Position numbers and translations under genes: made by a program
Notes under the pieces: generated by a model
The model's database searches: none
Seen by the model: the letters and a program-made list of their open reading frames with translations, nothing else
What the model was told of the DNA's origin: nothing
Shown: positions 9,785-34,914 of the stretch, piece after piece
How positions within the stretch are numbered: the stretch's first letter is position 1
How the letters are laid out: each line of letters opens with the position of its first letter
Assembly (NCBI GenBank): GCA_030682405.1
Contig: JAUXOF010000047.1
Location: 18,877 to 82,876, forward strand
Reading direction: 5' to 3'
DNA length: 64,000 nt
Source of the DNA: Thermodesulfovibrionales bacterium
Lineage (GTDB): Bacteria; Nitrospirota; Thermodesulfovibrionia; Thermodesulfovibrionales; JdFR-86

Positions 9785-10018
9785 CTAAAGTTTTTTCAAA
9801 GAGTCAGCATATTCTTCAACATTCAGTTCTATGTCTTGTAAAATTTCCCTTATTAACGGTCGCGCCAAGGTTCTACCTTTATGATGCGGTACCGTGGTGG
9901 TTCGTCCGTCTGGATGACGATAAAATACATGGCTTCCTTTTTGACGGACGCTTTTAAATCCCATAAGGAACAAGAGCTTCTCCATTGTTTGAGCGTCGAT
10001 AAGGGACAACCTGCTCAA
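9785..10018 (-). CDS. hicA: HicA-family mRNA interferase toxin
   Basis: 77 aa with GFKSVRQKGSHVFYRHPDGRTTTVPHHKG, a typical HicA core. Confidence 0.85.
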   Translation of the reverse strand: MSRLSLIDAQTMEKLLFLMGFKSVRQKGSHVFYRHPDGRTTTVPHHKGRTLARPLIREILQDIELNVEEYADSLKKL

Positions 10019-10236
10019 ACAGCGACCTCGATTTGTTGAATTCCGATAAACTCAGGCAAATTTCGCTTGGACTCTTCGTCCATCTCCTCCAAGCATAATT
10101 CAACGACCTCTTTAAGATTTCTCTGAAGTTCGTCTAAGGTTTCAGCCTGAGTATGCGCGCCTGGGATGCCCGGCACAACGGCAACGTACAGTCCGGTTTC
10201 AGTATCTTTTTCGATATACCCGATGGTTCTATACAT
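10015..10236 (-). CDS. hicB: HicB-family antitoxin (UPF0150 type, no separate DNA-binding domain visible)
   Basis: YVAVVPGIPGAHTQAETLDELQRNLKEVVELCLE. 4-nt overlap with hicA. ATG at 10236 is preceded by GGGAGGA; the TTG at 10242 in the ORF track is less likely. Confidence 0.8.
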   Translation of the reverse strand: MYRTIGYIEKDTETGLYVAVVPGIPGAHTQAETLDELQRNLKEVVELCLEEMDEESKRNLPEFIGIQQIEVAV

Positions 10237-10267
10237 TTTCAATCCTCCCGCAAAATCGTCTTAATGA

Positions 10268-10344: not shown

Positions 10345-11286
10345 CTATCCATTGCCCTTAGCTGCGGCCTCTACGGTTATCTTAAGCCCCTCATCAAGAG
10401 AAAACTCCGGCCTCCAGCCTAACTCTTTTTTCGCCTTGGAATTATTCAGGCAGAACCGTATCTGCTCGCCGGGCCTGTCTTTGTGATAAACGGGCATTGC
10501 CTTCCTGCCCAACAAATCCGAGGTCTTCTTATAGAGAGTGTTCAGGGTCGTCTCAACTCCGGAGCTGATGTTAAAGACAGGGTCGGGATTGTCGCTGCGG
10601 ACGGTTAAGGCAAGGAGGTTTGCCCTGACCACATCGGCGATGAACACGTAATCCCTTGTCTTTGTGCCGTCTCCCCAGATATCGGCCTGTTGGCCGGAGG
10701 AAAGCTTCCTTATGTAGTCCGCCATTGCGCCGGTTGCCTGTCCGGGGCCGTAGACCGTCGCATATCTGAGGACCACATACGGAAGCCCGTATGTCTTAGA
10801 GAAGAACCTGAGATAGTTCTCAGTCGCCTCCTTTGATATCGCATAGGGCGTGTCGTATGAGAAAGGCTCTTTCTCCTTAAGAGGGAGGTTGGGGTTGTTG
10901 CCGTATACGAACCCTGAGGAGCTGTAGAGCACCTTCTTTACATTCAGGTCTTTGGCCTTTCCGAGTATCCGCAGTGTGCCGGCAAGGCAGTCCATGTCAA
11001 GGAGGGGGTTTTGGACGGATTTCGGCACGAACACGAAATATGCGAAATGGCAGATTATCCCGGGCCTCTCCTTTTCCATGATTATCTCGATTTCCGGGTC
11101 GGCAATATTGACCTCGTAAAATGCCGCCTCAGGGTTGATGTTTTCCCTCCGGCCGCTTGAGAGGTTATCCACGACCACGACATTGGCGCCCTCACGAACG
11201 AGCGCATCCACGGTGTGCGAGCCTATAAAGCCGGCTCCGCCTGTAACCAGAACCTTTTTGCCTTTTAAACTCATTGAACGGGCCAT
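10345..11286 (-). CDS. NAD-dependent sugar-nucleotide epimerase/dehydratase (GalE-like extended SDR)
   Basis: [29 protein letters not shown] catalytic motif. Start moved to the ATG at 11286, which follows AAGGAAAGGA and lies after the upstream stop. Confidence 0.85.
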   Translation of the reverse strand: MARSMSLKGKKVLVTGGAGFIGSHTVDALVREGANVVVVDNLSSGRRENINPEAAFYEVNIADPEIEIIMEKERPGIICHFAYFVFVPKSVQNPLLDMDCLAGTLRILGKAKDLNVKKVLYSSSGFVYGNNPNLPLKEKEPFSYDTPYAISKEATENYLRFFSKTYGLPYVVLRYATVYGPGQATGAMADYIRKLSSGQQADIWGDGTKTRDYVFIADVVRANLLALTVRSDNPDPVFNISSGVETTLNTLYKKTSDLLGRKAMPVYHKDRPGEQIRFCLNNSKAKKELGWRPEFSLDEGLKITVEAAAKGNG

Positions 11287-11305: not shown

Positions 11306-12988
11306 CTATTTGTATATCTCAAAGGAGTTGGTCATCTGAACCCTCCCGCTTTTGAAATAATCCAGTATGCGGTTAATCCCGTAGTCTTCGGAAACATGCC
11401 TTTCCCTGAGCAAGGAGGCGGCATCGGCGTAAGCCTTGTCCTCTGCCTCGGAGCCCCTTTGCATCGAAAACCCCTCCATTTCCGGTATTATGCCGGGCTG
11501 CACAAGGGTGTGTATGAAGTATACGAATGCAGCGACCTTCGCCATGCCGGCATCAACCGTTTGGGTATTGTCCTTTCTAAAAAGGGTTGAGAGCAGGCGG
11601 AAATACTCCTCCTTGGTCTCAGGGTCAAAGGTAAACCCCAGTCCCGAATAGACCGCATCTCCTGCAAGCAGGCACTTGATTCCAAGATATGCGGCCTCAA
11701 GCCCTATAGTGCCGCGGGCCGTAACCACCCCGTCTGCGGAGTCAAGCACGGACTTGGTGCTCACGTCATCCGGAAGAAAGACGATATGCCCGGGCAGGCT
11801 GTCTCCGTATATCTCCCTTACGATTGTATCCAGCCGCACCTTGCTGTGATAGAAGCTGTGCCTGTTTAGGGGGTGTTCCTTCAGTATCCAGTTTACATCC
11901 TTTATGCCGCCCATGCGTTTAATCGTCTCGCGGGACCAGTCGTAATGGTCATTAAACAGGTACCATCTCTGGTCATGCGGCGCATCCGGGAAGACATGGG
12001 CCATCATGTAGACAAACGGCTTGTTTATGTCTATTTTCATGAGCCCGGCAAGCCCTTCCCTGGTATAAAACCGTTTTCCGGTCTTAAATGCGATAGTGAC
12101 GTTTGGGTCTCTCGTTACGTTTCCCGACATCCTCGCCTCAAAGTACTCCTCTATGACCCTGCGCGCCGTATCGGGATTGTTCTTATAAACGTCGTCGAAC
12201 ATCTCCTTTATCACCTTCCTGTAATAAACAGGCTCATCCTCAGGCTTGAACTTTCTGATGGTAAAGTTACCGGGCGTCTTTCCGTCGCAGCCCGCGAAGT
12301 ACACTGTCAATCCGGCCTCTCTTGCCGCCCGTATCATCGTGCCGTATACGTTGTATACGGCGGCATGCCCGACGATTATATGTTTCACGCTATGTTTTTT
12401 TATGAGTTTCTCGTGGATGTCATAGAAGAACACGGCCTCAACAATCTTCCTGTATAGATAGGGGTCTTTCCTTGAGACTGTGCCGTTTCCAGTGTCCCTA
12501 AGATATGTATCGTATATCAGGTCTCCTATAACCGCGCCTTTATATTTCAATGCTAAAAGATTTTCAGCTCTTGTTGAGAGGAATATAAAGACGGATTTAA
12601 CAAGGCTCATCACGAATGCGAGGGGGAATCTTCGAACACTGAGCATCTCTATGCGGTCGGCGCAGTAGGAGCGCATCACATCAAGCGCCCCTTTCCCTGC
12701 ATATGGCCTTGTGACCCAGACTGTTTTCAGGCCGGTGAGCTTCTTAAGCGCGGCAGATGTAACGCCGATTTCCATCAGCCCGCCGGGATAGGTGTTGAGG
12801 CCGTCAACCAGCACGGAATGCCCTTTTCCCTCGCACCTTCCGCCTAAAAACTCCTGCCATACAGCCCTGTTTGCCTCGCAGAAGGAGGCTGTGCCCCCTC
12901 CTGATAGGGATGTGTCCCCGGCTGCTTCCGCCCCCTTGCTCGCAGGGGGTCGCACCCCATTCGCAGGGGGTCGCACCCCCCCTACCAA
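11306..12988 (-). CDS. Putative capsule-polysaccharide biosynthesis transferase (KpsS/KpsC Capsule_synth-like GT-B); start uncertain
   Basis: C-terminal half ILKEHPLNRH...VVTARGTIGLEAAYLGIKCL resembles the other two such proteins in the window. The N-terminal 20 codons are a 21-bp tandem duplication starting at a TTG. Confidence 0.5.
   Translation of the reverse strand: MVGGVRPPANGVRPPASKGAEAAGDTSLSGGGTASFCEANRAVWQEFLGGRCEGKGHSVLVDGLNTYPGGLMEIGVTSAALKKLTGLKTVWVTRPYAGKGALDVMRSYCADRIEMLSVRRFPLAFVMSLVKSVFIFLSTRAENLLALKYKGAVIGDLIYDTYLRDTGNGTVSRKDPYLYRKIVEAVFFYDIHEKLIKKHSVKHIIVGHAAVYNVYGTMIRAAREAGLTVYFAGCDGKTPGNFTIRKFKPEDEPVYYRKVIKEMFDDVYKNNPDTARRVIEEYFEARMSGNVTRDPNVTIAFKTGKRFYTREGLAGLMKIDINKPFVYMMAHVFPDAPHDQRWYLFNDHYDWSRETIKRMGGIKDVNWILKEHPLNRHSFYHSKVRLDTIVREIYGDSLPGHIVFLPDDVSTKSVLDSADGVVTARGTIGLEAAYLGIKCLLAGDAVYSGLGFTFDPETKEEYFRLLSTLFRKDNTQTVDAGMAKVAAFVYFIHTLVQPGIIPEMEGFSMQRGSEAEDKAYADAASLLRERHVSEDYGINRILDYFKSGRVQMTNSFEIYK
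12940..12981. repeat. 21-bp tandem duplication, each copy containing a GGGGT-CGC-ACCCC mini-hairpin
   Basis: TCGCAGGGGGTCGCACCCCAT / TCGCAGGGGGTCGCACCCCCC lie directly after the SDR stop codon (12982-12984). Confidence 0.9.
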
Positions 12989-13803
12989 CAGGTTCTTCCT
13001 CCGTCAACTATGAGGTTTGCCCCTGTCATGTACGAAGAGGCATCCGAGACCAAAAACAGCACTGCACCTTTGTACTCGTCCCTCCGGGCCATCCTCCCCA
13101 TGGGTATCCTTGAGGATATTCTTTTGAGGAACTCATCGGGCTGGCCTGTGTACACGCCTCCGGGGGAGAGCGCATTGCATCGGATGTTTTTATCGGCCCA
13201 GTATGTGGCTATGTATTTTGTAAGCCCAAGAAGGCCGTGTTTTATCACGGAATAGGTTACAGGCTTTACCGGCTGCTTGTCCGGGGGAAGCCCCTCTTTT
13301 ACATAAAGCCTCTGGTCAGGGGCGATGACACCGAGGTCCGAGGATATGTTCAGTATCACCCCCCCGCCCCTTTTTGCCATCTCAGAGCCTATGACCTGAG
13401 AGCACAAAAACGCGCCTGTAAGCCCTACTGAAATTTCCATGTCCCAGTTCTTGATGGGGAAGTTTTCAAACCTGCTCCACGACCGGTCGTCGCCGGCCTT
13501 GACCTTAGGGTCTATTGCCGCATTATTGATTAATATATCCACGCGTCCGAATTTCCTCAAAACCGTGCGGAGGAGTTTTTGCACGCTCCCCCTGTCCGTA
13601 ATATCCGCGCCTATGCCGAGGGCGTCCGCCTTGTATTTCCCGGATACGGCCTTTGCCGCCTTTTTGGCAGCCACTTCTTTTATATCGGCAAGCACAGGGG
13701 TTCCGCCCGCCTCTGCCACGGCCTCGGCATGCATCAGGCCCAAGAGTCCCGCCCCTCCGGTGATGACGGCAACTTTTGATTTCAGGCTGAAAGTCCCTTT
13801 CAT
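12982..13803 (-). CDS. Short-chain dehydrogenase/reductase, paralog of the PtmA-like SDR
   Basis: KVAVITGGAGLLG, YSVIKHG, SDASSYMTGANLIVDGGRT. Start set to the ATG at 13803, just after the upstream stop at 13805. Confidence 0.85.
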   Translation of the reverse strand: MKGTFSLKSKVAVITGGAGLLGLMHAEAVAEAGGTPVLADIKEVAAKKAAKAVSGKYKADALGIGADITDRGSVQKLLRTVLRKFGRVDILINNAAIDPKVKAGDDRSWSRFENFPIKNWDMEISVGLTGAFLCSQVIGSEMAKRGGGVILNISSDLGVIAPDQRLYVKEGLPPDKQPVKPVTYSVIKHGLLGLTKYIATYWADKNIRCNALSPGGVYTGQPDEFLKRISSRIPMGRMARRDEYKGAVLFLVSDASSYMTGANLIVDGGRTCW

Positions 13804-13804
13804 T

Positions 13805-14581
13805 TCAGAAACCCCTTGTCTGTCCGCCGTCAACAACAAGGCAGGAGCCTGTAATGAATGACGCCCTCTCCGAGGAAAGGAATAGCACGGCATCCGCCAC
13901 CTCTTCCGGCCTGCCGAGCCTCTTCATAGGGACCTCCGAATTTATATATTGCTTAACGCCTTCGGCGTCTTCGCCGAGCTTTCTCTCCCAGACCCCTCCG
14001 GGCGCAAGGATATTTCCGGGCGCCACGACATTAACCCTTATGTTTTCCGGGGCAAGAAGCCTTGATAGGTTTTTGCTTGCTGCTATCAGCCCTGCCTTTG
14101 CCGCTGAATACGGAATCGGCGCGGGCAGCGTCTCGATGCCTGCTATAGAGGAAATAAAGACTATGGAGCCTCCGCCCCTTTTAATCATGAGGGGGACGGC
14201 ATATTTGACTACAAGGCTTGCGCCGATTAAGTTAATGTCCAGCATGTTCATCCAGTCGTCCTTGTCCGGCTCAAGCCCGGACTTGAGCCTTCCGCTCCCG
14301 ATGTTTGCAACGAGGATGTCAATGCCTCCCCACTTTTGCTCAATCGCCTTCAGGCAGCCGGCTATCCCTTCGGCGTCCGTAAGGTCGCAGACGGCGGACA
14401 TCAGGGACCCTTGGCCCAGGCGGGATGCGAACTCCCCGTATGCCTTCTTGAGCGCATTATCGTCTCTACCTGTAAGGGCAACCTTAGCCCCTGCCTCAAG
14501 AAAACTCCCTGCTATGACCCGGCCTATGCCCCTGCTTGAGCCTGTCACCAGAACAACCTTATCCTTAAGTCCAAGTTCCAT
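13805..14581 (-). CDS. Short-chain dehydrogenase/reductase (FabG-like)
   Basis: KVVLVTGSSRGIG, YSAAKAG, SERASFITGSCLVVDGG. Confidence 0.85.
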   Translation of the reverse strand: MELGLKDKVVLVTGSSRGIGRVIAGSFLEAGAKVALTGRDDNALKKAYGEFASRLGQGSLMSAVCDLTDAEGIAGCLKAIEQKWGGIDILVANIGSGRLKSGLEPDKDDWMNMLDINLIGASLVVKYAVPLMIKRGGGSIVFISSIAGIETLPAPIPYSAAKAGLIAASKNLSRLLAPENIRVNVVAPGNILAPGGVWERKLGEDAEGVKQYINSEVPMKRLGRPEEVADAVLFLSSERASFITGSCLVVDGGQTRGF

Positions 14582-14592
14582 ACAGAGCGCTC

Positions 14593-15423
14593 CTATAGTC
14601 CGTATTCTTTTATATAGTTTCTGACCATGCCCAGATATTTCTTTGCAACGCCTGCATCATCCGCATCGCGGGCGGTCTGAAGAATAAAAGGCCCTTTATA
14701 GGAAATCCCCTTAAGCGCCTTAAAGACCGCGGGGAAATCCGCATTGCCCTCCCCAAGCGGAACTGTGCCGCCGTGAAGAATGCGGTCTTTTATGTGTATG
14801 TTTGCGATGAAAGGGCCGAGGGTCTTTATCTCAAACCCGGGCTCATACCCCATGGAGGCGCTGTTGCCAATATCGAAGTTCACGGCCATAAGGGGATGGT
14901 TGAACCTTTCTATAAGCTCCCTGAACTCAAGCGGCGGAAGCGAGGTCTCAAGCGAAATAGCCACGCCATGCTTTTCCGCCGCAGGCAGGGCAGAGGAGAC
15001 GTATTTTATAAGTTCCGCTTTGTCCTCTTCTGTCTTTATGGCCGACTGGTCAACGCATGGTATCTCTATCAGCCTGACCCCTGCCTGAGAGGACATGCTT
15101 ATCAGGCTGATGAGCACATCCGCACTCTCTTTTTTTGCTTCTTCAGGCACCCTGAAAAAAGGGTGTTCCATGAAATAATCAGCGCATATGGAAGAAACAG
15201 GAATGCCTGTTTTATCTATAAGCCCTCTGACCTTCTTTATTCCACCGGATGTATAGATGGGGTTTTCGTCCGACCTGTCCGCCTCGAAGATAAACTCTAT
15301 GGAGTCAAACCCGCATGCCTTTGCCGTCTCAAACTCCTCTTCCCACCTCTCCCATGGGAAGGCCTGAATCCTGTCTCCTATCCGGGGGACGAGCCGCCCC
15401 TGCATGACCCCGACGGGATTCAT
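14593..15423 (-). CDS. Xylose-isomerase-like TIM barrel, UlaE/SgbU-type ketose-phosphate 3-epimerase homolog
   Basis: GVMQGRLVP.., CGFDSIEFIF, NFDIGNSASMGY, NIHIKDR...VPLGEGNADFPAVFKALKGISYKGPFILQ parallel the UlaE layout. ATG at 15423 gives a 1-nt overlap with the upstream stop. Confidence 0.7.
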   Translation of the reverse strand: MNPVGVMQGRLVPRIGDRIQAFPWERWEEEFETAKACGFDSIEFIFEADRSDENPIYTSGGIKKVRGLIDKTGIPVSSICADYFMEHPFFRVPEEAKKESADVLISLISMSSQAGVRLIEIPCVDQSAIKTEEDKAELIKYVSSALPAAEKHGVAISLETSLPPLEFRELIERFNHPLMAVNFDIGNSASMGYEPGFEIKTLGPFIANIHIKDRILHGGTVPLGEGNADFPAVFKALKGISYKGPFILQTARDADDAGVAKKYLGMVRNYIKEYGL

Positions 15424-16463
15424 TATCCGAACATCTCCCTCTCTATGTACTCGCAAAGCATGTGGCCCACAAGTATGTGCCCTTCCTGTATCCTCGGCGT
15501 GCTTTTGGAAGGTATGCATATGCCGACGTCCGCGAGCTTCACAAGTTCGGTGTCCTTTCTTTGCCCTGTGAGCACGACGGTTTTCATGCCGATTTTCTTT
15601 GCGGCCTCCACTGCCTTCACCACGTTTTTAGATGTCCCGCTTGTGGAGATTCCGATAAGGACGTCGCCCTTTTTGCCCTCGGCCTCTACCTGCCTTGCGA
15701 ATACCAAGTCAAAGCCGTAGTCATTGCCTATGGCAGTCAAGGAGGAGGTGTTACATGAAAGGGACTCCGCCGCGAGGGCCTTTCTTTCCATTAGAAATCT
15801 GCTTACGAGTTCCGTGGCCAGATGCTGGGCGTCCGAAGCGCTTCCGCCGTTTCCGCAGAAAAGGAGTTTTCCGCCCTTCCTGTAACAGTCAAGGAGAAGC
15901 TCGCCTGCCTTTTTTATGTCTTCCATTGTTTCGGTCTTTAGCGCCTTTATTGCCTCTATGTGCCCGTCTATGCAGCCGGTCCAGAAGGCGTCTTTAGGGT
16001 CTTTGTCCTGCGCCTTTATATGCATAAGGACTTCTTTAATCACCCCTTCTCCGCGCCTTGCGCTGAGGACGATGTTTGCGCAGGCCTTCGCCTCAGGGCC
16101 TGAGTCAGAGGGCGCAAAGCTCCACCTGAGATGCTCAAGGAGTGCCGCATCTTTTTTGGAGTCGCCCACGAATGCTATTTTAGATTCATCCAGAGAGTTC
16201 TTCTTTACGAGGGACTTAAAGCCCTTGAGCTTGTCCTTTGAGCCGGAGATGAAAAAGTCAGGGGAAAACCTCTGCCTTATGAACTCCGTAAAGGGCGTCT
16301 CCTCGGCGGTTATAAAGCCGGTCTTTATGCCCATGCGCTTAAGCTCAAAATATGCGTCAATGTCGTCAAAGGCTATCACCTTTGACTCTTCCCCGGACTT
16401 GTCTATGGTAACCTTGCCGTCCGTCAGTACGCCGTCTACATCAAATAAAATTATCTCAATCAT
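15423..16463 (-). CDS. Fusion protein: KdsC-type HAD sugar-acid-phosphate phosphatase (N-terminal) + GmhA/DiaA-type SIS sugar-phosphate isomerase (C-terminal)
   Basis: N-terminal LFDVDGVLTDGKV...AFVGDSKKD...GGEGVIKEV (KdsC pattern). C-terminal LFCGNGGSASDAQHLATEL...GISTSGTSKNV (SIS). ATG at 16463 is preceded by GAGGAG. Confidence 0.8.
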   Translation of the reverse strand: MIEIILFDVDGVLTDGKVTIDKSGEESKVIAFDDIDAYFELKRMGIKTGFITAEETPFTEFIRQRFSPDFFISGSKDKLKGFKSLVKKNSLDESKIAFVGDSKKDAALLEHLRWSFAPSDSGPEAKACANIVLSARRGEGVIKEVLMHIKAQDKDPKDAFWTGCIDGHIEAIKALKTETMEDIKKAGELLLDCYRKGGKLLFCGNGGSASDAQHLATELVSRFLMERKALAAESLSCNTSSLTAIGNDYGFDLVFARQVEAEGKKGDVLIGISTSGTSKNVVKAVEAAKKIGMKTVVLTGQRKDTELVKLADVGICIPSKSTPRIQEGHILVGHMLCEYIEREMFG

Positions 16464-16506
16464 GGTGCGCTCCTCTTTATCGTTTTCAGGGCTTAGAGCC
16501 CCCATT

Positions 16507-17361
16507 TTAGCGAATCGTCCAGCCGCCGTCAACAATAATGCTCTGTCCGGTAATGTAGTCCGAGGAGTCCGCGGATAGGAAGACGAGAGCGCCCTTTAAA
16601 TCCTCCGGCCTTCCGAACCTTCCCAGCACGGTTTTGTCCCTGAGCCTCTTAAGAAAGCCCTCGTCTTTGGGGCTGTTGTAAGAGCTTCCCTCCAGATTGG
16701 GGAATGCGCCCGGCAGGATGGAGTTGCAGCGTATCCCGTGTTCTCCGTAAAAAGATGCAATGTACCTTGTAAGGGCCGCGATTCCCGCCTTTGATACGCT
16801 GTAGGCCGGAGGGTTGAACATCTCGGTCCCTTTGTAAATCCCGGGGTCCGGCGAGACAAGGGCGTACATAGAGCTTATGTTTATTATCGAGCCGCTCTTT
16901 TGCCCCTTCATCTTCTCGCCTATGACCTGTATCGCAAGCGCGCTCCAGTAGACCCCTGACTCAAGGCTCTTCATCCACTGGGACTTGGACATCTTTTCCG
17001 CTTTGCCTGAGGGGTCGTTGAAACCGGTATCTTTGCTGAAGTCAAACGCATTGTTTACGAGTATATCAATGGACTTGTTCTTGCGTGCCGCATCTATAAG
17101 TGCCTTCCTGTAATCGTTCTCACTGTAGAAATCCGCCTTGTATTGCGTTACCTTCGCCTTTTTGTGAGTTGCCTTTAACGATTTGGCGAGTTTTTCAAGT
17201 TTCCCTGCGCTTCTTCCAAAAAGTATAACGTCTGCCCCTGCGGAAAGGAGGCACTCTGAAAACGCAGCGCCGAAATATCCGGTTGCGCCGGTTACCACGG
17301 CTGTCTTGCCTTTGAGGGAAAAAAGAGACCCTATTGAGCTGAATCTTGGTCTATCCGGCAT
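16507..17361 (-). CDS. Short-chain dehydrogenase/reductase, PtmA-like paralog
   Basis: KTAVVTGATGYFG, YSVSKAG, SADSSDYITGQSIIVDGGWT. Confidence 0.85.
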   Translation of the reverse strand: MPDRPRFSSIGSLFSLKGKTAVVTGATGYFGAAFSECLLSAGADVILFGRSAGKLEKLAKSLKATHKKAKVTQYKADFYSENDYRKALIDAARKNKSIDILVNNAFDFSKDTGFNDPSGKAEKMSKSQWMKSLESGVYWSALAIQVIGEKMKGQKSGSIINISSMYALVSPDPGIYKGTEMFNPPAYSVSKAGIAALTRYIASFYGEHGIRCNSILPGAFPNLEGSSYNSPKDEGFLKRLRDKTVLGRFGRPEDLKGALVFLSADSSDYITGQSIIVDGGWTIR

Positions 17362-18061
17362 GGGAGACGCCCGCCCTTTGCCGCTTAAGTATCCATTCGC
17401 ACACCTCTATATCCTCCGGGGAATCTATCTGGAAGGAGCTTAGAAAGTCCATCTCATAGACTTCAATCTTGCCGCCCAGCCGGTTGTTGAGTTCCACAAG
17501 GACATTCGGCTTGAATACGTAAATCGAGCCGTTTTCCATGAACTGCTCGGGAAAATCCTGCTCCCTCCACCGGTTTTTGTAGTCGTAGTTTACGGACTCC
17601 ACCTTATCGCCTTTCCTGCGCCAGATGAACTTGTTCCACCTGCATACCGAGAAAAGGGAATCTGCACCGGATTCGATGAAGAGCCTGACGGCGTTATCTA
17701 TGTCGTCAGGCTCTCTTACAGGTGAGGTGCACTGAAGAAATACGATAATGTCGGGCTGATACCCCTCTTGTTTCTGAAGGAGGCCAAGGACGTGCTGTAT
17801 TGCGGACTCGGACGTAGCCGTGGCAACGGCAAGCTCAGGCGGGCGCATTATGACCTCTGCGCCGTATTGCCTCGATATTTCCGCTATCTCCCCGTCGTCC
17901 GTTGAGACGAGCACGCGGCTTACCGAGCGGGAGCTTTTTGCGTGCTCTATGGAATGGGCTATGAGGGGCTTGCCTGACAGCGGCAGGAGGTTCTTCCTCG
18001 GTATGCGCTGGGAGCCTCCCCGCGCCGGGATAACGGCAATGACATTGGCCTGATGCGCCAT
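17351..18061 (-). CDS. Acylneuraminate (CMP-ulosonic acid) cytidylyltransferase family protein
   Basis: VIAVIPARGGSQRIPRKNLLPLSGKPLI signature; 236 aa. Confidence 0.88.
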   Translation of the reverse strand: MAHQANVIAVIPARGGSQRIPRKNLLPLSGKPLIAHSIEHAKSSRSVSRVLVSTDDGEIAEISRQYGAEVIMRPPELAVATATSESAIQHVLGLLQKQEGYQPDIIVFLQCTSPVREPDDIDNAVRLFIESGADSLFSVCRWNKFIWRRKGDKVESVNYDYKNRWREQDFPEQFMENGSIYVFKPNVLVELNNRLGGKIEVYEMDFLSSFQIDSPEDIEVCEWILKRQRAGVSHAG

Positions 18062-18933
18062 CAGTAAATTCGTCTTAGCTTTGAAATAATCGGCTTTTCG
18101 CTGTCATAAATCTTTATAACGCCGTTTCCGAGCGCTGCCTCTATGGTTCGAATGTCCCTTACGAGCCTCTTTAGGCCCTGAGGCTCTACAGAGGCGGCAT
18201 GGTCGCTGCCCCACATGCTCCTGTCAAGGGTGATGTGCCGCTCAATAACGCATGCGCCGAGAACCGCTGCCGCAACAGAAGTGGAAAGTCCCACCTCGTG
18301 CCCTGAATAACCGATGGGGATGCCGAAGCGCTCACTGAGGGTCTGAATGCCCCTGAGGTTAAGCTCCTCCGGCTTGGACGGATATGTGCTTGTGCAGTGA
18401 AGTATTATCAGGTCTCGTTTGCCTAACACCCCGACCGCATGCTCGATGAGCTTTAAGTCGCTCATGCCTGTGGAGAGTATTATAGGTTTTCCGTACTTCC
18501 TGTGGTGCTTAAGAAGGTTGTCGTCCGTAAGGGATGCGGAGGCTATCTTGTAAAACGGCAGGTTGAACTTCTCCATGAAGTCCGCCGCACCCTCGTCCCA
18601 GCACGATGCAGTCCATGCGATGCCCTTTTGCCTGCAGTATTTGTCTATCTCTGAATATTGCTTCTGACCGAACTCAAGGCCGCGCTTTAAGTCCCCGTTT
18701 GTCAGGCCGAAGGGGTTTTCTCTGGGTTTTGCCAGTTCCTCGGCAGAGTAGACGACCTCTACGGTCCTCTTCTGGAATTTGACCGCATCGCATCCGCAGT
18801 CTATGGCAACATCAATAAGCTGCTTTGCTATGTCTACGGAACCGTTGTGGTTTATGCCTATTTCGGCAATGATGTATGCAGGCTGCCCTTCCCCTACGGT
18901 TTTATCGCCTAATTTTACGGTCTTGAACTTCAT
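18061..18933 (-). CDS. NeuB-family PEP-condensing ulosonic acid synthase, short form lacking the C-terminal SAF domain
   Basis: YIIAEIGINHNGS..AVKFQKRT, KIASASLTD, STGMS. At 290 aa it ends where PseI and LegI continue into SAF. Confidence 0.85.
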   Translation of the reverse strand: MKFKTVKLGDKTVGEGQPAYIIAEIGINHNGSVDIAKQLIDVAIDCGCDAVKFQKRTVEVVYSAEELAKPRENPFGLTNGDLKRGLEFGQKQYSEIDKYCRQKGIAWTASCWDEGAADFMEKFNLPFYKIASASLTDDNLLKHHRKYGKPIILSTGMSDLKLIEHAVGVLGKRDLIILHCTSTYPSKPEELNLRGIQTLSERFGIPIGYSGHEVGLSTSVAAAVLGACVIERHITLDRSMWGSDHAASVEPQGLKRLVRDIRTIEAALGNGVIKIYDSEKPIISKLRRIY

Positions 18934-19128
18934 AATCTCCCTCCTTAAAGCCTTCTTCAGAAAGCATTTTATAATAACAGAATAATAACAGATATGATAA
19001 CAAAAATGCCCGGATTTTTGGTTGTCCGATTTTTTGGCGAACGCCGTCTCAAGCCCTGTTTTTTTTTGTAACCGGACACCGCCACCGGAGCCGGGAGTTG
19101 TGCTAAAATAACTTATAAATGATAGTAA

Positions 19129-21268
<2,140 letters not shown>

Positions 21269-21272
<4 letters not shown>

Positions 21273-22633
21273 AGGTGTTGCTTCTTAACCCCCCTATCAG
21301 GGAATGGGCCAAGCCCAATGTCTTTCCGCTGGGCCTTGCATACCTTGCCTCTGTGCTCAAGGAGGGGGGCCACAAGGTTGAAGTCCTCGATATAAACGCC
21401 TTCAGATGGACGCGCGAGACTGTCGAGAGAAAAATCAAAGAGGCCGAGTTCGACCTGCTCGGCATCGGCGCCATTGTTACGGTTTACGGATACGTCAAGT
21501 GGCTCGTTGGGATTTCCAAAAAGCATCACCCGGATAGAAAGGTTGTCGTGGGCGGGAGCGTGGGCACTTCAATTCCGCATATCGTCCTTGAGAAGACGGA
21601 GACAGATATTGTCTGCATAGGCGAAGGAGAAAGGACCATTGTCGACATGGTAAAGGCATTGGAGAGAGGTGAAGACCTCTCCGGAGTCAACGGCATATGG
21701 TTCAGGGGGCAAGACGGCAGGATAATAAAGACCGGGGCGAGAGCCCCGATAGCGGACCTCGATGCAATCCCCCTGCCTGCATGGGATATCTTCCCCATGG
21801 ACATATACCTCAAAAACCCGGTCGGCGCGCCCAACAGGAACAAGTGGATAGACGGCGGCTCTTCGGAAAACGCAGCCCCGTCCATGAACCTCAGCGCCAC
21901 GAGGGGGTGCCCGTACAAGTGCATCTACTGCTACCACGACTTCATGGGCCAGAAGTACAGGCACAGGTCCCCGGGGAACATCATCCGCGAGATGAGGGCC
22001 CTCTACGACGTGTACGGGGTCAGGTATTTCCATTTCATAGACGACGAGTTCTGCCTCAAAAAGAGTTTCGTCTTTGACTTCTCGAAGGCCGTGAGGGAGG
22101 AGTTCGGAGGAGACGTGACATGGGGGTGCTCGGGCAGGGTCAACCTGATGACCGAGGAGATGATTGCCGCGATGGCAGAGGCCGGATGCGTCCTCATAGG
22201 CTACGGCATTGAGTCCGGAAGCCAGAGGATGCTCGACGTGATGAAAAAGGGGGTCACTGTGGAGCAGGCCAAAAATGCCGTCCGCATGACGATGAAGCGC
22301 CTGGGCTGGGCGGACTGCTCATTCATGATAGGCACTCCGGGAGAGAACATAGAGACCGTCCGGGAGACTATAGATTTCTGCAAGGAGATGGACCTTACCC
22401 CTGAGGTAATTTTCTTTGCCACGCCTTATCCCGGCACCGAGCTTTACGATATGGCCCTCGCTCTGGGGAAGATAAAGGACGAGGAGCAATACGTGCTCGG
22501 CCTCGGCGAGCAGGGCGAAAAGGTAAGGGTCAACTTCACCGAGCTCTCTGACGAAGAGCTTATGCGCACTCAGGAGGACATGATACGGGAGCTTGGCGCA
22601 TGGAACAAGCTCAGGCACCCGGAGAGCAGATAG
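21269..22633 (+). CDS. B12-binding-domain radical SAM enzyme (class B)
   Basis: N-terminal Rossmann PLGLAYLASVLKEGGHKVEVLD, cluster motif ATRGCPYKCIYCYH. ATGA overlap with pseC. Confidence 0.85.
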
Positions 22634-22634
22634 A

Positions 22635-23375
22635 ATGAACATACTATGCGTAATACCGGCGAGGGGGGGCAGCAAGAGGACCCCTGGCAAAAACATAAAG
22701 CCCCTCATGGGGAAGCCACTGATATCGTACACCATAGAGAAGGCCCTTGAAAGCAGGCTCGTAACGAGGGTCGTCGTCTCCACCGACAGCCCTGACATCG
22801 CCCGTGTGGCCCGGGACTTTGGGGCCGAGGTGGTCGAGAGGCCAGCGAATATCTCCGAGGACACCTCTGCAATAGACGACTCCCTCCGCCACGCGGTCAG
22901 GCATCTTGAGGCCGGAGAAGGCTTCAGGCCGGACGTGGTCGTGCTCCTTCAGGCGAACGTGCCGGTCAGGAAAGAAGGCGAGATAGACGAGGTCATAAGG
23001 GCGCTGCTTGAAAACCCCGAGGCGGAATCCGTAGCCACCGTCTACGAGGTAGACCAGCGGATAGAGTGGATGAAAAGGGTTGACGCAAGCGGAAAGGTCA
23101 CTCCCTTCATGGGGCAGACCGCCTCCTACAGGAAGCAGGACCTGCCGGAGCTTTACCTCATTGACGGGGCGATAGAGGCCGTCAGGACCGATACCCTCAT
23201 GAGGACAGAGGGCAATAGGATGGCCCACGCATATTTCGGCGAGCGCCTCTACGCCTTCATCCACGAAAAGAAATACGCTATAGAGGTGGACGTAGCGGAA
23301 GACCTTGAGATGGCGGAGTATTTCCTCGGCAGGGAGCATGTCCCCCTGCGGAGAGGCAAGAAGACCTCTGCCTGA
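22635..23375 (+). CDS. pseF: Pseudaminic acid cytidylyltransferase
   Basis: ILCVIPARGGSKRTPGKNIKPLMGKPLI. The ATG is 1 nt after the radical SAM stop. Confidence 0.88.
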   Translation: MNILCVIPARGGSKRTPGKNIKPLMGKPLISYTIEKALESRLVTRVVVSTDSPDIARVARDFGAEVVERPANISEDTSAIDDSLRHAVRHLEAGEGFRPDVVVLLQANVPVRKEGEIDEVIRALLENPEAESVATVYEVDQRIEWMKRVDASGKVTPFMGQTASYRKQDLPELYLIDGAIEAVRTDTLMRTEGNRMAHAYFGERLYAFIHEKKYAIEVDVAEDLEMAEYFLGREHVPLRRGKKTSA

Positions 23376-23403
23376 TAAACATGGGCATCCGGCAGAAGGG
23401 GTT

Positions 23404-24966
23404 ATGAGCGCAGAGAAGGTTCTAATCAGGGTGGACGCCTCAGCCGCCATAGGCATGGGACACGTGATGAGGTGCATAGCCTTTGCTCAGGGCATAAGCG
23501 GGATGGGCTTTGAGCCGGTCTTTGCGACCCGCACGGAAAACAACAGTCTACTTGAGAAGATAAAAAAAGAGGGGTTCAGGGCTTACCCCCTGAAAAACGG
23601 GGGGGGAGATAGGGGGAACCCCGACGAGCTTAAGGGGATAATCGGCAAAGAGAAGCCTTTGTGGGTCGTGCTTGACGGGTATCATTTCGGGACTGATTAT
23701 CAGAAGGCGATTAAGGATATGGGGCATCGTCTTCTGGTTATAGACGACATGGCGCACCTTACTCGCTATCACGCGGACATAATCCTCAACCAGAACTATG
23801 GGGCAGAAAGGCTTATTTATAAGGCGTTGCCTGAGACGCGGTTTCTCTTCGGCCCGAAATACGCCCTCTTAAGAAAAGAGTTCCTGCATTATGGTGATTT
23901 TAAAAGAGAAATCCCCCAAAAGGCCGAAAAGCTCCTTGTTACGATGGGAGGGGCCGACGCTGACAACTGCACAGGGAAAGTTCTCCGGTCATTAAAACTC
24001 ATAGACCTCCCGCTTCATGTGAAAGTCGTTGTAGGGGCAAGCAACCCCCACTACGAATCCCTAAAGTCCGCCGCCCCGGACAGCCGTCACAGGATTGAGT
24101 TTGTAAGAAACGTAGAGGATATGTCCCCTCTAATGGCATGGGCGGACATTGCAGTCTCGGCAGGCGGGACCACCACTTGGGAGCTTGCCTTCATGGGGCT
24201 TCCGACAGCACTCTGCATAATTGCAGACAATCAAGAGCCTGCGGTAAGAGCGCTTGAGAAGGACGGTTTTTTCGCCTCAGCCGGGCGGATCGGGGACAAA
24301 ACCGAAAAAGAGCTTTCATCGATAATTCAGGGGATAATAGACAATAGCGCGGCGACCCTTAGCGAAAAAGGCAAAAGGCTTGTCGACGGATACGGGGCAT
24401 TGAGAGCCGGGATAGAACTCATCGGGGGCGGGGAAGTCGCCCTAAGGAGGGACTTCGATTTCGGGCCGGTAAGGTTCGTGAACTTTATAAACCTCACACC
24501 CGAAGAAAAAGAGGCGGTACTCGGCTGGCGGAACTCAGATGAGATAAGAAAATGGATGTTTACAAGCCATATAATCTCAAAAAAAGAGCATCTGCGTTTT
24601 ATAGAGGGTCTCAGGGAAGATGGCAGGAATTTTTACTGGATGGCAAAGGTGGGGGGCAAGGCATCAGGGGTCGGCAGCTTTCAGAAGGTTGATGCCGAGA
24701 CAAGAAGCGGGCATCTCGGCATATATTCCGTGGAAAGGGGCGCAGGCAGGACAATTATGCAGCGCCTTTTATGCCTCTGGTTTGATATTCTGAAGATGCG
24801 TGTATTAAAATCCGAACTCATAGAGGGCAATGAACGGGCTCACAATTTTTATGAGGATTTCCAGTTTAAAGCCGAGGGCGTTGCACGCTCAATCGAAGAA
24901 AACGGCGTAACCAAAAAAGTTATAACAATGACAAAAACTAAAGAGAGCATTTCCAATGCGAATTAG
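23404..24966 (+). CDS. pseG: Fusion: UDP-2,4-diacetamido-2,4,6-trideoxy-beta-L-altropyranose hydrolase (PseG) + GNAT N-acetyltransferase (PseH-like)
   Basis: N-terminal IRVDASAAIGMGHVMRCIAFA and GGTTTWELAFMGLP (PseG, GT28-like). The C-terminal ~170 aa is GNAT-like (WRNSDEIRKWM..., NERAHNFYEDFQF). Confidence 0.8.
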   Translation: MSAEKVLIRVDASAAIGMGHVMRCIAFAQGISGMGFEPVFATRTENNSLLEKIKKEGFRAYPLKNGGGDRGNPDELKGIIGKEKPLWVVLDGYHFGTDYQKAIKDMGHRLLVIDDMAHLTRYHADIILNQNYGAERLIYKALPETRFLFGPKYALLRKEFLHYGDFKREIPQKAEKLLVTMGGADADNCTGKVLRSLKLIDLPLHVKVVVGASNPHYESLKSAAPDSRHRIEFVRNVEDMSPLMAWADIAVSAGGTTTWELAFMGLPTALCIIADNQEPAVRALEKDGFFASAGRIGDKTEKELSSIIQGIIDNSAATLSEKGKRLVDGYGALRAGIELIGGGEVALRRDFDFGPVRFVNFINLTPEEKEAVLGWRNSDEIRKWMFTSHIISKKEHLRFIEGLREDGRNFYWMAKVGGKASGVGSFQKVDAETRSGHLGIYSVERGAGRTIMQRLLCLWFDILKMRVLKSELIEGNERAHNFYEDFQFKAEGVARSIEENGVTKKVITMTKTKESISNAN

Positions 24967-25993
24967 CGGAAGAAGAATCGGCCCCGGGTATCCGGTATTC
25001 GTCATAGCCGAGATGTCCGGCAACCACAATCAGGACTTTGACGAGGCGGTTAGAATCATACAAGCGGCAAAGGGAGCCGGGGCTGATGCGATAAAGCTTC
25101 AGACATACACCGCAGACACCCTCACGATAGATTCTGACAGCGAATATTTCAGGATTAAGGGCACTCTATGGGAGGGACAAACCCTCTACAGCCTCTATAA
25201 AAAAGCATACACGCCGTGGGAGTGGCACCCGAAACTAAAAGAGGCGGCACAGGAAGCGGGGATAATACTTTTCTCCACCCCGTTTGACAAAACCGCAGTA
25301 GATTATCTCGAAAAGATGGAAGTCCCGGCCTATAAGATAGCCTCTTTCGAGCTTGTGGACATCCCGCTAATAGAATACGCCGCCTCAAAGGGCAAGCCCA
25401 TGATAATGTCAACCGGCATGGCCACCCTCGATGAGATAAAAGAGGCGGTTGATGCGGCAAGGGGAGCGGGAGCAAAAGACATTGCCCTTCTTAAATGCAC
25501 AAGCGCATACCCCGCGCCTCCGGAGGAGATGAACCTGAGGACCATAGCCGACCTATCTGAAAGGTTCGGAGTCGTATCAGGGCTTTCCGACCACTCAATG
25601 GGCATAGCCGTGCCTGCTGCCTCTGTTGCCTTGGGCGCATCCATAATAGAGAAGCACCTCACTTTATCCCGCGCAAAGGGCGGCCCTGATTCGGCTTTCT
25701 CTCTTGAGCCTTCCGAGTTTGCGGCTATGGTTGAAACCGTCAGGGTTGCAGAGAAGGCCGTCGGCGCGGTGCATTACGGGCTTACAGAGAAAGAGGAGAA
25801 AAGCAAGGTATTCAGGAGGTCCCTTTTTGTGGTAAAGGACGTGAAAGCAGGCGATATCTTTACGGAGGATAATGTGCGCTCTATAAGGCCCGGACACGGG
25901 CTTAAACCCAAGCACATAAAGGATGTTTTGGGGAAAAAGGCATCTAAAGACATTAAAAAAGGCACCCCCCTTGACCAGTCTATGCTCCGGTGA
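24956..25993 (+). CDS. pseI: Pseudaminic acid synthase
   Basis: VIAEMSGNHNQD..AIKLQTYTADTLT, YKIASFELVD, STGMATL, C-terminal SAF VKDVKAGDIFTEDNVRSIRPG. Confidence 0.9.
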   Translation: MRISGRRIGPGYPVFVIAEMSGNHNQDFDEAVRIIQAAKGAGADAIKLQTYTADTLTIDSDSEYFRIKGTLWEGQTLYSLYKKAYTPWEWHPKLKEAAQEAGIILFSTPFDKTAVDYLEKMEVPAYKIASFELVDIPLIEYAASKGKPMIMSTGMATLDEIKEAVDAARGAGAKDIALLKCTSAYPAPPEEMNLRTIADLSERFGVVSGLSDHSMGIAVPAASVALGASIIEKHLTLSRAKGGPDSAFSLEPSEFAAMVETVRVAEKAVGAVHYGLTEKEEKSKVFRRSLFVVKDVKAGDIFTEDNVRSIRPGHGLKPKHIKDVLGKKASKDIKKGTPLDQSMLR

Positions 25994-26045
25994 CAAACCC
26001 CCCATCGTTTGATTAATCGCCGCGGATTCGGTTATCATATTGTTT

Positions 26046-32766: not shown

Positions 32767-33047
32767 CTTAAGCCCTTTTCTTCCTCGATGAGCCTCTCGA
32801 ACCTGTAGCGGCACCTCACGTGGCCTTCAAGCGAAGGCAGATGCGCGCCGCCCGCGATGTCGGTTGAATTGCAGTTGGGGCAGGCCTCCTCGTGGCACAG
32901 GCAGACCTCCCCGCATTTGCGGCATACCCTGTAGAGATTGCCTTTTGTCGCGGGGGAATTTATGAGAATCTTAATCCGTATCCTTCTTTCTCTTTCTATC
33001 CATGCCGGATATTCAGCATCAAGGTTGGGGTCAGGGTCAAGCTTCAT
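32763..33047 (-). CDS. Small Zn-ribbon protein of unknown function
   Basis: 94 aa with CRKCGEVCLCHEEACPNC. Translationally coupled on both sides (1-nt and 4-nt overlaps). Confidence 0.55.
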   Translation of the reverse strand: MKLDPDPNLDAEYPAWIERERRIRIKILINSPATKGNLYRVCRKCGEVCLCHEEACPNCNSTDIAGGAHLPSLEGHVRCRYRFERLIEEEKGLR

Positions 33048-34270: not shown

Positions 34271-34914
34271 AATTTTAAAAAGTTCCTATAGATATCAAGC
34301 CCAAGGGCGCCGCTTTTTTCCGGGTGGAACTGACATCCGCATATATTATTTTCGTTAATCGCAGAGCAAAAAGTCAACCCGCCGTATGCGGTCTCGGCAA
34401 GAATATGGGAGGGGTCATCGGGCGCCACGACATAGGAATGGACGAAGTACATGGAGTCTCCTTCCTTAAGCCCCTCAAGTATCGTAGAGTCCCAGTTCTT
34501 GCGGTGTCCGGGCATGTAAATCCCGTTCCATCCGATATGGGGTATCTTGTAATGCGGGCCTTTGTCCGCAGGCGCGGGAAACCGCACCACCTTGCCTGAG
34601 ATAAGGTCAAGCCCCTTGTGCGTTCCCATCTCCTCGCCTACGGTCATCAGGAGCTGCATCCCAAGGCAGATGCCTAAGACCGGCCTGCCGGAGGAGGCAA
34701 CGGACTTTATGGGTTCTACGAGCCCCCTGCCTTTCAGATTGGATATGCCTTGTCCGAATGCGCCAACGCCCGGCACTATCAGGTAATCCGAACTTGAAAT
34801 CACTCCCGGCTCCGAGGAGATTACCGCATCGGCCCCTGCGTATCTTACGGCCCTCTCCACGCTGAATAGGTTTCCGAGGCCGTAGTCCACGATATTGACG
34901 GTCTTTTTGCTCAT
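34267..34914 (-). CDS. HisH-like glutamine amidotransferase subunit (WbuY-like)
   Basis: GVGAFG, PVLGICLGMQLL (nucleophile elbow), GCQFHPEKSG. Confidence 0.88.
   Translation of the reverse strand: MSKKTVNIVDYGLGNLFSVERAVRYAGADAVISSEPGVISSSDYLIVPGVGAFGQGISNLKGRGLVEPIKSVASSGRPVLGICLGMQLLMTVGEEMGTHKGLDLISGKVVRFPAPADKGPHYKIPHIGWNGIYMPGHRKNWDSTILEGLKEGDSMYFVHSYVVAPDDPSHILAETAYGGLTFCSAINENNICGCQFHPEKSGALGLDIYRNFLKL

Follow-up and report, generated by a model that had tools for sequence, protein, structure and literature searches.

A predicted Kdn-type phosphosugar operon with a GmhA-type isomerase and a possible ten-carbon ulosonic acid product in a Thermodesulfovibrionales bacterium

Several described routes assemble an ulosonic acid on a phosphorylated sugar. 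In the Kdn route of Bacteroides thetaiotaomicron (BT1713, BT1714 and a CMP-Kdn synthetase) and Prymnesium parvum, a NeuB-family enzyme condenses phosphoenolpyruvate (PEP) with a sugar 6-phosphate, and the route further includes a C0-type, KdsC-family phosphatase of the haloacid dehalogenase (HAD) superfamily and a synthetase of the CMAS type with a gatekeeper arginine for the 5-hydroxy acid. In the animal Neu5Ac-9-phosphate route (NANS, NANP and CMAS) and in the NeuB::phosphatase fusion of Leptospira, a phosphorylated aldose is condensed and a dedicated phosphatase then follows. The Kdo pathway (KdsD-KdsA-KdsC-KdsB) consists of an isomerase, a PEP condensation, a phosphatase and a CMP activation. 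Here we analyzed a 64,000-nucleotide stretch (the window) of contig JAUXOF010000047.1 (positions 18,877 to 82,876, assembly GCA_030682405.1) from a Thermodesulfovibrionales bacterium, in which an operon at 11306-18933 follows the same logic. The operon shares the synthase and synthetase families, and probably the phosphatase family, with the Kdn route. In contrast to that route, it has in addition a GmhA-type isomerase in fusion with the phosphatase, a triosephosphate isomerase (TIM) barrel with the UlaE fold and three short-chain dehydrogenases/reductases (SDRs), and it may start from a heptose phosphate in place of a mannose phosphate. We propose that the operon makes and transfers a CMP-activated, non-aminated 5-hydroxy ulosonic acid of the Kdn type, and that heptose-7-phosphate and PEP are condensed to give a ten-carbon acid; we put the probability of this reading at about 0.45. 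The operon and its genes, with fusions marked by a double colon, are as follows.

11306-18933, minus strand: operon block of eight tightly packed genes, with junctions of -11 to +43 nt
18061-18933, minus strand: short NeuB-family synthase without a SAF domain, 290 aa (PF03102 at residues 39-271, 3.1e-82)
17351-18061, minus strand: CMP-ulosonic acid synthetase (CMPt), predicted Kdn type, 236 aa (PF02348, CTP_transf_3, 2.3e-28)
16507-17361, minus strand: SDR3, similar to PtmA, KduD and gluconate-5-dehydrogenase, 284 aa (adh_short and adh_short_C2)
15423-16463, minus strand: HAD::SIS fusion gene, KdsC-type HAD and GmhA-type SIS
15984-16463, minus strand: HAD phosphatase domain of the fusion, KdsC/KDN-9-P phosphatase family, residues 1-160 (TIGR01670, 86.7 bits)
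15423-15968, minus strand: SIS domain of the fusion, GmhA (sedoheptulose-7-phosphate isomerase) type, residues 166-346 (TIGR00441, 198.8 bits)
14593-15423, minus strand: xylose-isomerase-like TIM barrel with the UlaE fold, 276 aa (AP_endonuc_2, PF01261, 2.4e-30)
13805-14581, minus strand: SDR2, similar to FabG and glucose-1-dehydrogenase, 258 aa (adh_short_C2, 2e-59)
12982-13803, minus strand: SDR1, PtmA-like, 273 aa (PRK09186, 174 bits)
11306-12988, minus strand: putative CMP-ulosonic-acid glycosyltransferase of the GT-B fold, distantly similar to KpsC, KpsS and WbbB (PF05159)

The junctions, read downstream from the short NeuB gene, are -1 nt (NeuB/CMPt), -11 nt (CMPt/SDR3), +43 nt (SDR3/HAD::SIS), -1 nt (HAD::SIS/TIM), +11 nt (TIM/SDR2) and +1 nt (SDR2/SDR1, with the SDR1 start at 13803). 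The gene for the putative transferase belongs to the same unit: its junction with SDR1 is +26 nt for a 549-residue protein starting at GTG 12955 (the NCBI call), or -7 nt for a 560-residue protein starting at TTG 12988. Most of the starts are preceded by Shine-Dalgarno-like sequences. An earlier reading of this DNA from its letters (the sequence-only reading) had listed these genes as the third ulosonic-acid module of the window, separate from its Pse and Leg clusters. Our analysis supports that view. All listed genes and their tight, co-directional junctions are present on the minus strand, and no aminotransferase, acetyltransferase or NeuC gene is found within 11306-18933, as had been claimed. 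Domain calls were based on Pfam and NCBIfam profile matches, which confirmed NeuB, CTP_transf_3, HAD and SIS, AP_endonuc_2 and three adh_short domains; the fusion of HAD and SIS is confirmed, with matches to TIGR01670 (KdsC family) and TIGR00441 (gmhA).

The 290-residue NeuB protein is the proposed enzyme for condensing PEP with an aldose phosphate. No SAF domain (PF08666) is matched in it by Pfam, whereas PseI (24956-25993) and LegI (40527-41531) in the same window carry this domain at residues 287-345 and 281-332, respectively. The sequence-only reading had noted the same difference, and the motifs it quoted are found. The SAF (antifreeze-like) domain of NeuB, PseI and LegI supplies Arg314 to the neighboring active site. 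The SAF-less family ends instead in a KLRR tail that is at least 90% conserved (window 18061-18075), and this tail may replace the SAF-domain arginine and bind the substrate phosphate. The nearest cluster representatives lack SAF when they are at least 55% identical and rarely have it at 50-55%, and four of five NeuB-HAD fusions also have no SAF domain. Compared with NmNeuB, the protein keeps E25, K53, Q55, K129, S132, S154, Y186, S213, H215, E234, H236 and D247, while E134 and N184 are both replaced by Ser. It scores below the curated equivalog cut-offs for bacterial Neu5Ac and Pse synthases, TIGR03569 (270.7 versus 399.65) and TIGR03586 (211 versus 340.25), and no NCBIfam model for Kdn-9-phosphate synthase activity matched it. 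The short NeuB family is very large, with members 63-83% identical across Nitrospirota, Firmicutes, Acidobacteriota, candidate phyla and archaea. The structure of a 290-residue NeuB from Leptospira (6NCS) is only a distant relative (1.7e-42), and in contrast to the Neu5Ac-9-phosphate route the window has no ManNAc-6-phosphate supply, N-acetyl group or SAF/AFP domain.

The phosphatase and the CMPt place the core of the operon close to the Kdn route. The DxDGxxTDG and GDSxxD motifs are readable in the HAD domain, which scores below the cut-offs of TIGR01670 (86.7 versus 106.95), NF058599 for KDN-9-P phosphatase (79.9 versus 180) and NF007019 (63 versus 208). Its best solved relative is 3E81 (BT1713, 1.4e-16), the KDN-9-P phosphatase; KdsC structures match at 3e-12 or weaker. 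The domain is thus slightly nearer to 3E81 than to KdsC, a difference that is not decisive. The PDB lists 3E81 as an acylneuraminate cytidylyltransferase. For the CMPt, the best solved relative is 9T4Z, the CMP-Kdn synthetase PpNeuA of Prymnesium (1.6e-34). CMAS structures match it at 1e-25 to 1e-34 and KdsB at 1e-10 or weaker, and the PseF equivalog is not reached (136 versus 205.7). Arg196 of PpNeuA is a gatekeeper that selects Kdn over Neu5Ac and is common to other Kdn-specific enzymes (PMC12934254). The window CMPt has an arginine at this position (NNRLGGK aligned with KCRLGEK), which is taken by Leu or Phe in the enzymes from mouse, Neisseria and Vibrio. Its sequence therefore assigns the CMPt to the 5-hydroxy (Kdn-type) class. 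The close relation to a Kdn synthetase, together with the gatekeeper arginine, suggests that the core is a Kdn-type pathway and that the product keeps a C5 hydroxyl, in agreement with the absence of aminotransferase and acetyltransferase genes. The lack of amination, as read earlier, is thus supported. The further statement that the gene set could be mapped onto no known pathway was overstated: a short NeuB, a KdsC/KDN9PP-type phosphatase and a synthetase similar to CMP-Kdn synthetase make up the known Kdn-type route.

The SIS domain suggests a sugar phosphate other than that of the Kdn route. It is 55% identical to Campylobacter jejuni GmhA (1TK9) over 161 residues and keeps the GmhA motifs GNGGSA.DAQH..ELVSRF, IGNDYGF, GISTSGTS and RIQEGH....H in alignment with solved GmhA proteins. 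We take the His and Glu of DAQH..E and the Gln and His of RIQExH....H to be the zinc site, the Asp of GNDYGF to be a further functional residue, and S-T-S-G-x-S to be the phosphate loop. By its sequence, the domain is a sedoheptulose-7-phosphate isomerase of the GmhA type; its NF010546 score is 203 against a cut-off of 276. The product of GmhA, D-glycero-D-manno-heptose-7-phosphate, is the homologue of mannose-6-phosphate with one more carbon and shares its manno configuration. Most simply, heptose-7-phosphate would thus be the NeuB substrate and give a ten-carbon 3-deoxy-ulosonate 10-phosphate. The repeated association of GmhA with the short NeuB likewise argues for heptose-7-phosphate rather than mannose-6-phosphate. 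The specific link to sedoheptulose-7-phosphate, and hence to a possible C10 product, was absent from the sequence-only reading. Compared with the ADP- and GDP-glycero-manno-heptose pathways, the window SIS is GmhA by sequence, but there is no heptose kinase, GmhB or nucleotidyltransferase, and the GmhA is fused to a KdsC-type phosphatase within a NeuB operon; neither heptose kinase nor nucleotidyltransferase genes were seen near the SIS in the window. An analogy of the SIS to the Leg pathway was dropped, as PtmF is an oxidoreductase of the GFO/IDH/MocA type and not a SIS protein.

The recurrence of the gene set, partly in the same order, in independent contigs is far beyond chance, and the operon is real and widespread. 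Related loci (metagenome contigs) are given L-numbers and protein representatives P-numbers below. For a neighborhood count we took 40 non-redundant loci with 5 kb or more of flanking sequence and asked which genes occur no further than 8 kb from the short NeuB. CMPt was found in 20 of the 40, TIM in 17, HAD in 16, and SIS and SDR1 in 15 each, followed by SDR2 (11), SDR3 (7) and a class-IV aminotransferase (Aminotran_4, 3). The gene order of the window, NeuB-CMPt-SDR3-TIM-SDR2-SDR1-large protein (type D, which includes a CMPt(-HAD) variant), is repeated in L171/L172 and L173 with 51-71% identity to the window, and at least 105 sample blocks contain the TIM protein of L171/L172. The type-D gene content is also present in L109, L134, L139, L142 and L165. 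In type A, NeuB-HAD(::SIS)-Aminotran_4-TIM-SDR2-SDR1-CMPt, the aminotransferase takes the place of SDR3. The absence of an aminotransferase, put forward earlier as a property of the module, is thus true of the window but specific to this variant, as a common sister variant has a class-IV enzyme there. Type B consists only of CMPt::HAD-NeuB-CMPt and a putative transferase. A scan of genome contigs with the HAD::SIS protein was governed by the GmhA motif and returned mostly ordinary gmhA loci, with parts of the module only in L006, L014 and L072.

The fusions and the isomerase neighbors in these loci bear on the order of the reactions and on the substrate. HAD is fused to SIS in the window, L001 and L086, to CMPt in L087 and L171, to TIM in L173 (P0197) and to NeuB in P0272 (CMPt::HAD::NeuB), P0279 and P0300, the last three resembling the synthase-phosphatase fusion of Leptospira. 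These fusions support the sugar-phosphate route that had been predicted. A CMPt::HAD fusion suggests that dephosphorylation takes place directly before activation, i.e. that the phosphatase acts on the ulosonate phosphate, which is also its place in the Kdo, Kdn and animal Neu5Ac routes. The HAD of P0279, a Bacteroidota-type HAD::NeuB protein, was tried as a guide to the carbon count (8 versus 9) and was set aside, since it matches KdsC and BT1713 equally. In L139, L152, L101/L106 and L113, a separate GmhA-like gene precedes the short NeuB by 35-85 bp. In an archaeal contig, a GmhA-like gene that is 60% identical to the window SIS overlaps the short NeuB by 4 nt, and a Gram-positive Peptococcaceae operon carries a SIS::HAD fusion.

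Some loci show further contexts. In L004 (10001-18390) and L098/L099, a 71-74% identical short NeuB stands with a SPASM radical SAM protein and a CMP-transferase, with no HAD or SIS in view. L004 alone also has a DegT aminotransferase, two B12 radical SAM enzymes and a LIC12162-family protein, and L098/L099 have one B12 radical SAM enzyme and an SDR3 homologue. Genes for adenylylsulfate (APS) kinase and sulfotransferase lie beside short-NeuB or related nonulosonic acid (NulO) modules at L086 (8404-8949 and 18502-18894), L169 (4114-5223) and L171 (1349-2467), which hints at sulfated glycans.

The TIM barrel and the SDRs set the operon apart from a plain Kdn route. The AlphaFold2 (AF2) model of the TIM protein (pLDDT 95) has UlaE (3CQJ) as its best Foldseek match, with a TM score of 0.85, an E-value of 6e-18 and 20% identity. 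The earlier assignment as a UlaE-like 3-epimerase thus holds for the fold over the whole length. It does not hold as well for the activity. The best NCBIfam model is L-ribulose-5-phosphate 3-epimerase, and the NCBIfam score for a UlaE/SgbU-type 3-epimerase is 75.6 against a cut-off of 200. Although the protein keeps E159, D184 and H210, Gln249 is found at the position of UlaE Glu251. This glutamine is invariant in 16 TIM homologues and present in 19 of the 27 TIM genes of NeuB-linked loci; Glu, and with it the E-D-H-E tetrad, is retained in a NeuB-linked sister group that is more distant (L101, L106, L108, L140, L150, L159 and L166). In ketose 3-epimerases, the equivalent of Glu251 binds the metal and acts as one of the two bases in catalysis. 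This makes a classical two-base 3-epimerization ahead of NeuB doubtful for the window protein. By analogy, it is probably a metal-dependent enolizing enzyme (an epimerase, isomerase or dehydratase) that acts next to a carbonyl. The TIM gene is almost always accompanied by SDR1 and, as in P0197, can be fused to HAD.

All three SDRs match adh_short and adh_short_C2, and their TGxxxGxG and YxxxK motifs are readable. SDR1 and SDR3 share 35-36% identity with the PtmA-like SDR of the window (35806-36600), consistent with the relation to a ptmA-like gene noted previously, and resemble dehydrogenases of open-chain sugar acids (gluconate 5-dehydrogenase and KduD). The best NCBIfam matches of SDR3 are gluconate 5-dehydrogenase, PRK09186 and KduD. 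SDR1 is the most conserved tailoring gene, with 58-64% identity in L001, L072, L086, L088, L171 and L173. Orthologues of SDR2 (48-57% identity) occur in L001, L086, L088, L171 and L173, and those of SDR3 (52-58%) occupy the same position in L171 and L173.

A NeuB enzyme is also tied to an AP_endonuc_2 TIM barrel in the neuA-neuB system of Serratia marcescens KL1/KL2, where a NeuB with a COG1082 (sugar-phosphate isomerase/epimerase) domain makes Kdn, likewise a non-aminated product. No SDRs or GmhA are reported for that system, in contrast to the window. The Serratia fusion was considered as an orthologue and retained as an analogy only, since TIM domains of another subfamily are found in the available NeuB-SAF-TIM fusions: SAF is present, the TIM domain is at most 33% identical to that of the window over 88 residues, and the terminal Glu is kept. 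P0326, P0357, P0369 and P0394 are NeuB-SAF-AP_endonuc_2 proteins of 633-662 residues that resemble the 746-residue 'NeuB' of the S. marcescens Kdn capsule.

The last gene of the operon provides a candidate for the transfer step. It matches PF05159 (Capsule_synth) weakly (30.1 bits, cut-off 20). The top fold matches of its AF2 model (pLDDT 82) are the β-Kdo transferases WbbB and KpsC with E-values of 2e-6 to 9e-6; the TM scores are only 0.33-0.53, or 0.43-0.53 for the top WbbB and KpsC matches when normalized to the target. The nearest folds are thus those of the GT99/GT107 β-Kdo transferases, the KpsC/KpsS/WbbB of the Kdo system. The HP and GxE residues are invariant in this rare family, whose genes in other contigs come directly after those for PseI-type (NulO) synthases. 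A place in the LIC12162 family (PF27859) was also considered for this protein and rejected; there is no match to the LIC12162 protein of L004, and the resemblance is to Capsule_synth. A second Capsule_synth protein (PF05159, 2.4e-14), encoded at 26040-27482 on the plus strand, directly follows PseI in the window and is itself followed by a Wzx-type flippase (27490-29007, plus strand). It seems that every ulosonic-acid module comes with a KpsC/KpsS-like transferase of its own.

Combining these data, we propose the following pathway. The GmhA-type SIS domain would convert sedoheptulose-7-phosphate to D-glycero-D-manno-heptose-7-phosphate, which the SAF-less NeuB would condense with PEP to a 3-deoxy-dec-2-ulosonate 10-phosphate, the C10 homologue of Kdn-9-phosphate. 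The KdsC/KDN9PP-type HAD domain would then remove the terminal phosphate. An SDR may oxidize a side-chain hydroxyl of the dephosphorylated acid, and the metal-dependent TIM protein could enolize beside the new carbonyl, leading to an epimerization or to a β-elimination (a dehydration as in IolE). The other SDRs may reduce the product, while in type-A operons the class-IV aminotransferase may aminate the keto intermediate instead. Finally, the Kdn-type CMPt would activate the acid and the KpsC/WbbB-like protein of 549-560 residues would transfer it to a surface glycan. The operon, the identities of its domains, the phosphosugar logic and the 5-hydroxy type of the CMPt are given by sequence, fusions and synteny. 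From these we infer the identity of the aldose phosphate (heptose-7-phosphate over mannose-6-phosphate), the place and chemistry of the TIM protein and SDRs, and the acceptor. The feed through SIS and the tailoring by TIM and SDRs are the unassigned parts; the core is already known as the Kdn-type phosphosugar route, and the product is possibly new.

Several observations weigh against a ten-carbon product. The B. thetaiotaomicron and P. parvum enzymes of the same logic use mannose-6-phosphate and give Kdn. Many operons with a 70-78% identical NeuB have no SIS (L087, L090, L129, L171 and L173), suggesting that their substrate comes from housekeeping metabolism, which fits mannose-6-phosphate at least as well as heptose-7-phosphate. 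The SIS, a domain inside a fusion, falls narrowly below the curated GmhA cut-off (198.8 versus 209.45), the HAD domain is not confidently separable from KdsC, and the TIM and SDR roles are assigned by analogy. A full-text literature search for names of dec-2-ulosonic or ten-carbon ulosonic acids returned nothing relevant, no amino-free 3-deoxy-ulosonic acid of ten carbons is known to have been described, and the C10 CMP-sugars of Magnetospirillum carry two N-acetyl groups and are hence not the product of the window. The product could accordingly be a nine-carbon acid made from mannose-6-phosphate, either the CMP-Kdn of B. thetaiotaomicron and Prymnesium or a Kdn with an altered side chain (epimerized or deoxy); the GmhA-like domain would then make mannose-6-phosphate from fructose-6-phosphate or serve a separate heptose need of the same polysaccharide. 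Characterized Kdn-9-phosphate synthases do use mannose-6-phosphate and need a KdsC-family phosphatase, the CMPt with its gatekeeper arginine resembles a CMP-Kdn synthetase most closely, a SIS gene is missing from many closely related operons, a ManC/PMI gene lies at the edge of L172, and the COG1082-fused NeuB of S. marcescens KL1/KL2 makes authentic Kdn. Yet mannose-6-phosphate is generally available, and GmhA-like genes nevertheless adjoin or fuse into the pathway repeatedly, including in an archaeon and a Gram-positive bacterium. The SIS keeps every GmhA motif at 55% identity, which argues against a substrate one carbon shorter; a separate heptose need is not matched by heptose kinase or nucleotidyltransferase genes near the SIS in the window; and the TIM domain of the Serratia type is of a different subfamily. 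Taken together, we consider a nine-carbon product the main rival, though a less likely one than the ten-carbon acid.

Other arrangements of the same enzymes fare less well. In the order put forward by the sequence-only reading, the TIM protein 3-epimerizes a ketose phosphate, SIS converts it to a non-manno aldose phosphate, and NeuB condenses this to a new stereoisomer that the SDRs tailor afterwards. UlaE, an L-xylulose-5-phosphate 3-epimerase, is indeed the best match of the TIM protein in sequence and fold over its whole length, the NeuB-adjacent sister group keeps the canonical tetrad, and SIS, NeuB and TIM form an adjacent trio in L101 and L106. The second catalytic Glu, however, is an invariant Gln in the orthologous group of the window, the TIM gene travels with SDR1 rather than with SIS, the TIM-HAD fusion (P0197) places it near dephosphorylation and not before the isomerase, and type-B operons have the same NeuB without any TIM gene; an early epimerization therefore appears improbable. 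It is more improbable still, and by a clear step, that the product is an eight-carbon, Kdo-like acid, with SIS acting as an arabinose-5-phosphate isomerase and NeuB, HAD and CMPt replacing KdsA, KdsC and KdsB. Such a pathway would have a logic identical to that of KdsD-KdsA-KdsC-KdsB, the HAD domain matches the KdsC family model and the transferase resembles β-Kdo transferases. But the synthase is a NeuB and not a KdsA, the SIS is of the GmhA and not the KdsD type, and the CMPt falls among the nine-carbon CMAS enzymes (1e-25 to 1e-34), with KdsB matching only at 1e-10 or weaker; the LpxC context of the window also implies a normal Kdo pathway elsewhere in the genome. Amidotransfer has been proposed for PtmA and PtmF in the Campylobacter Leg pathway, and with SDR1 and SDR3 being PtmA-like, the operon could in principle give an aminated, Neu-type product without a classical aminotransferase, through amidotransfer on the sugar phosphate. 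The Leptospira NeuB::phosphatase fusion has been interpreted as an animal-like Neu5Ac-9-phosphate route, in keeping with such a product. We find it the least credible of the readings: the CMPt arginine disfavors a 5-N-acyl group, the block has no N-acetyltransferase or glutaminase, and the sister operons that aminate use a dedicated Aminotran_4. A Kdn-type acid of ten carbons is the product we favor.

The operon lies in a surface-polysaccharide region that adjoins lpxC and contains GDP-mannose dehydratase and glycosyltransferase genes. The Pse cluster (19141-27482), with its Wzx flippase, and a complete Leg cluster (33047-44291) are in the same window, and the short NeuB gene is divergent from pseB across a 207-bp spacer. 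Two further features border the operon.

18971-19000, minus strand: tentative promoter-like site in the short NeuB/pseB spacer (9 of 12 consensus positions and an extended -10 TG; a consensus match only)
10345-11286, minus strand: NAD-dependent epimerase/dehydratase similar to GalE and RmlB (PF01370, 7e-53), co-directional and 19 nt downstream of the operon

The epimerase/dehydratase gene is not in the conserved set of the related loci, and its membership in the module is uncertain. The best promoter-like match of the region (16504-16532, minus strand, 10 of 12 positions, also a consensus match only) is located in the 43-nt gap before HAD::SIS and is a possible internal promoter. A terminator scan of the region showed no enrichment over shuffled sequences.

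Other genes of the window are also of interest. B12-binding radical SAM genes are found at 21269-22633 (plus strand) and 31378-32814 (minus strand). One of them is within the Pse operon, between PseC and a PseF-like CMP-transferase, which suggests a C-methylated, longer-chain Pse derivative similar to the C10 di-N-acetyl CMP-ulosonic acids of Magnetospirillum. At the end of the Leg cluster (33047-35780, minus strand), a HisH/HisF-like glutamine amidotransferase/cyclase pair stands with a 407-residue protein that has no Pfam match, an arrangement typical of acetamidino (Leg5Am-type) modification. A fusion of AMP-binding, carrier-protein and acyltransferase domains (878 residues, 44355-46991, minus strand) adjoins the Leg cluster and is followed by an inositol-monophosphatase-family gene (46975-47766). 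An overlapping pair of small genes on the minus strand, 9785-10018 and 10015-10242, encodes HicA toxin-like (GSHVFYRHPDGR...) and HicB antitoxin-like proteins and lies between the epimerase gene and the GT2 gene in the polysaccharide locus. At 54472-61356 (minus strand), successive genes encode proteins whose N-termini carry type IV pilin-like methylation motifs; the product of one has 1301 residues.

Nonulosonic and related acids cap bacterial surfaces and influence how phages, immune systems and lectins recognize them. NeuB proteins without SAF have been noted in environmental bacteria without a function (PMC8208679), and mass-spectrometric surveys have found unassigned 'higher-carbon' ulosonic acids in environmental microbes (PMC8157484; bioRxiv 10.64898/2026.04.20.719630). 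Our literature search found no paper that assigns a product to the operon. The operon and its relatives in Nitrospirota, Acidobacteriota, Firmicutes and archaea could represent the first pathway for making a ten-carbon ulosonic acid, a reading to which we give somewhat less than an even chance. If the C10 reading is true, the operon would provide a genetic basis for the unassigned acids of these surveys. It offers a small, directly testable gene set for a C10 homologue of Kdn or a new Kdn derivative, and could define the substrate range of the SAF-less NeuB enzymes.

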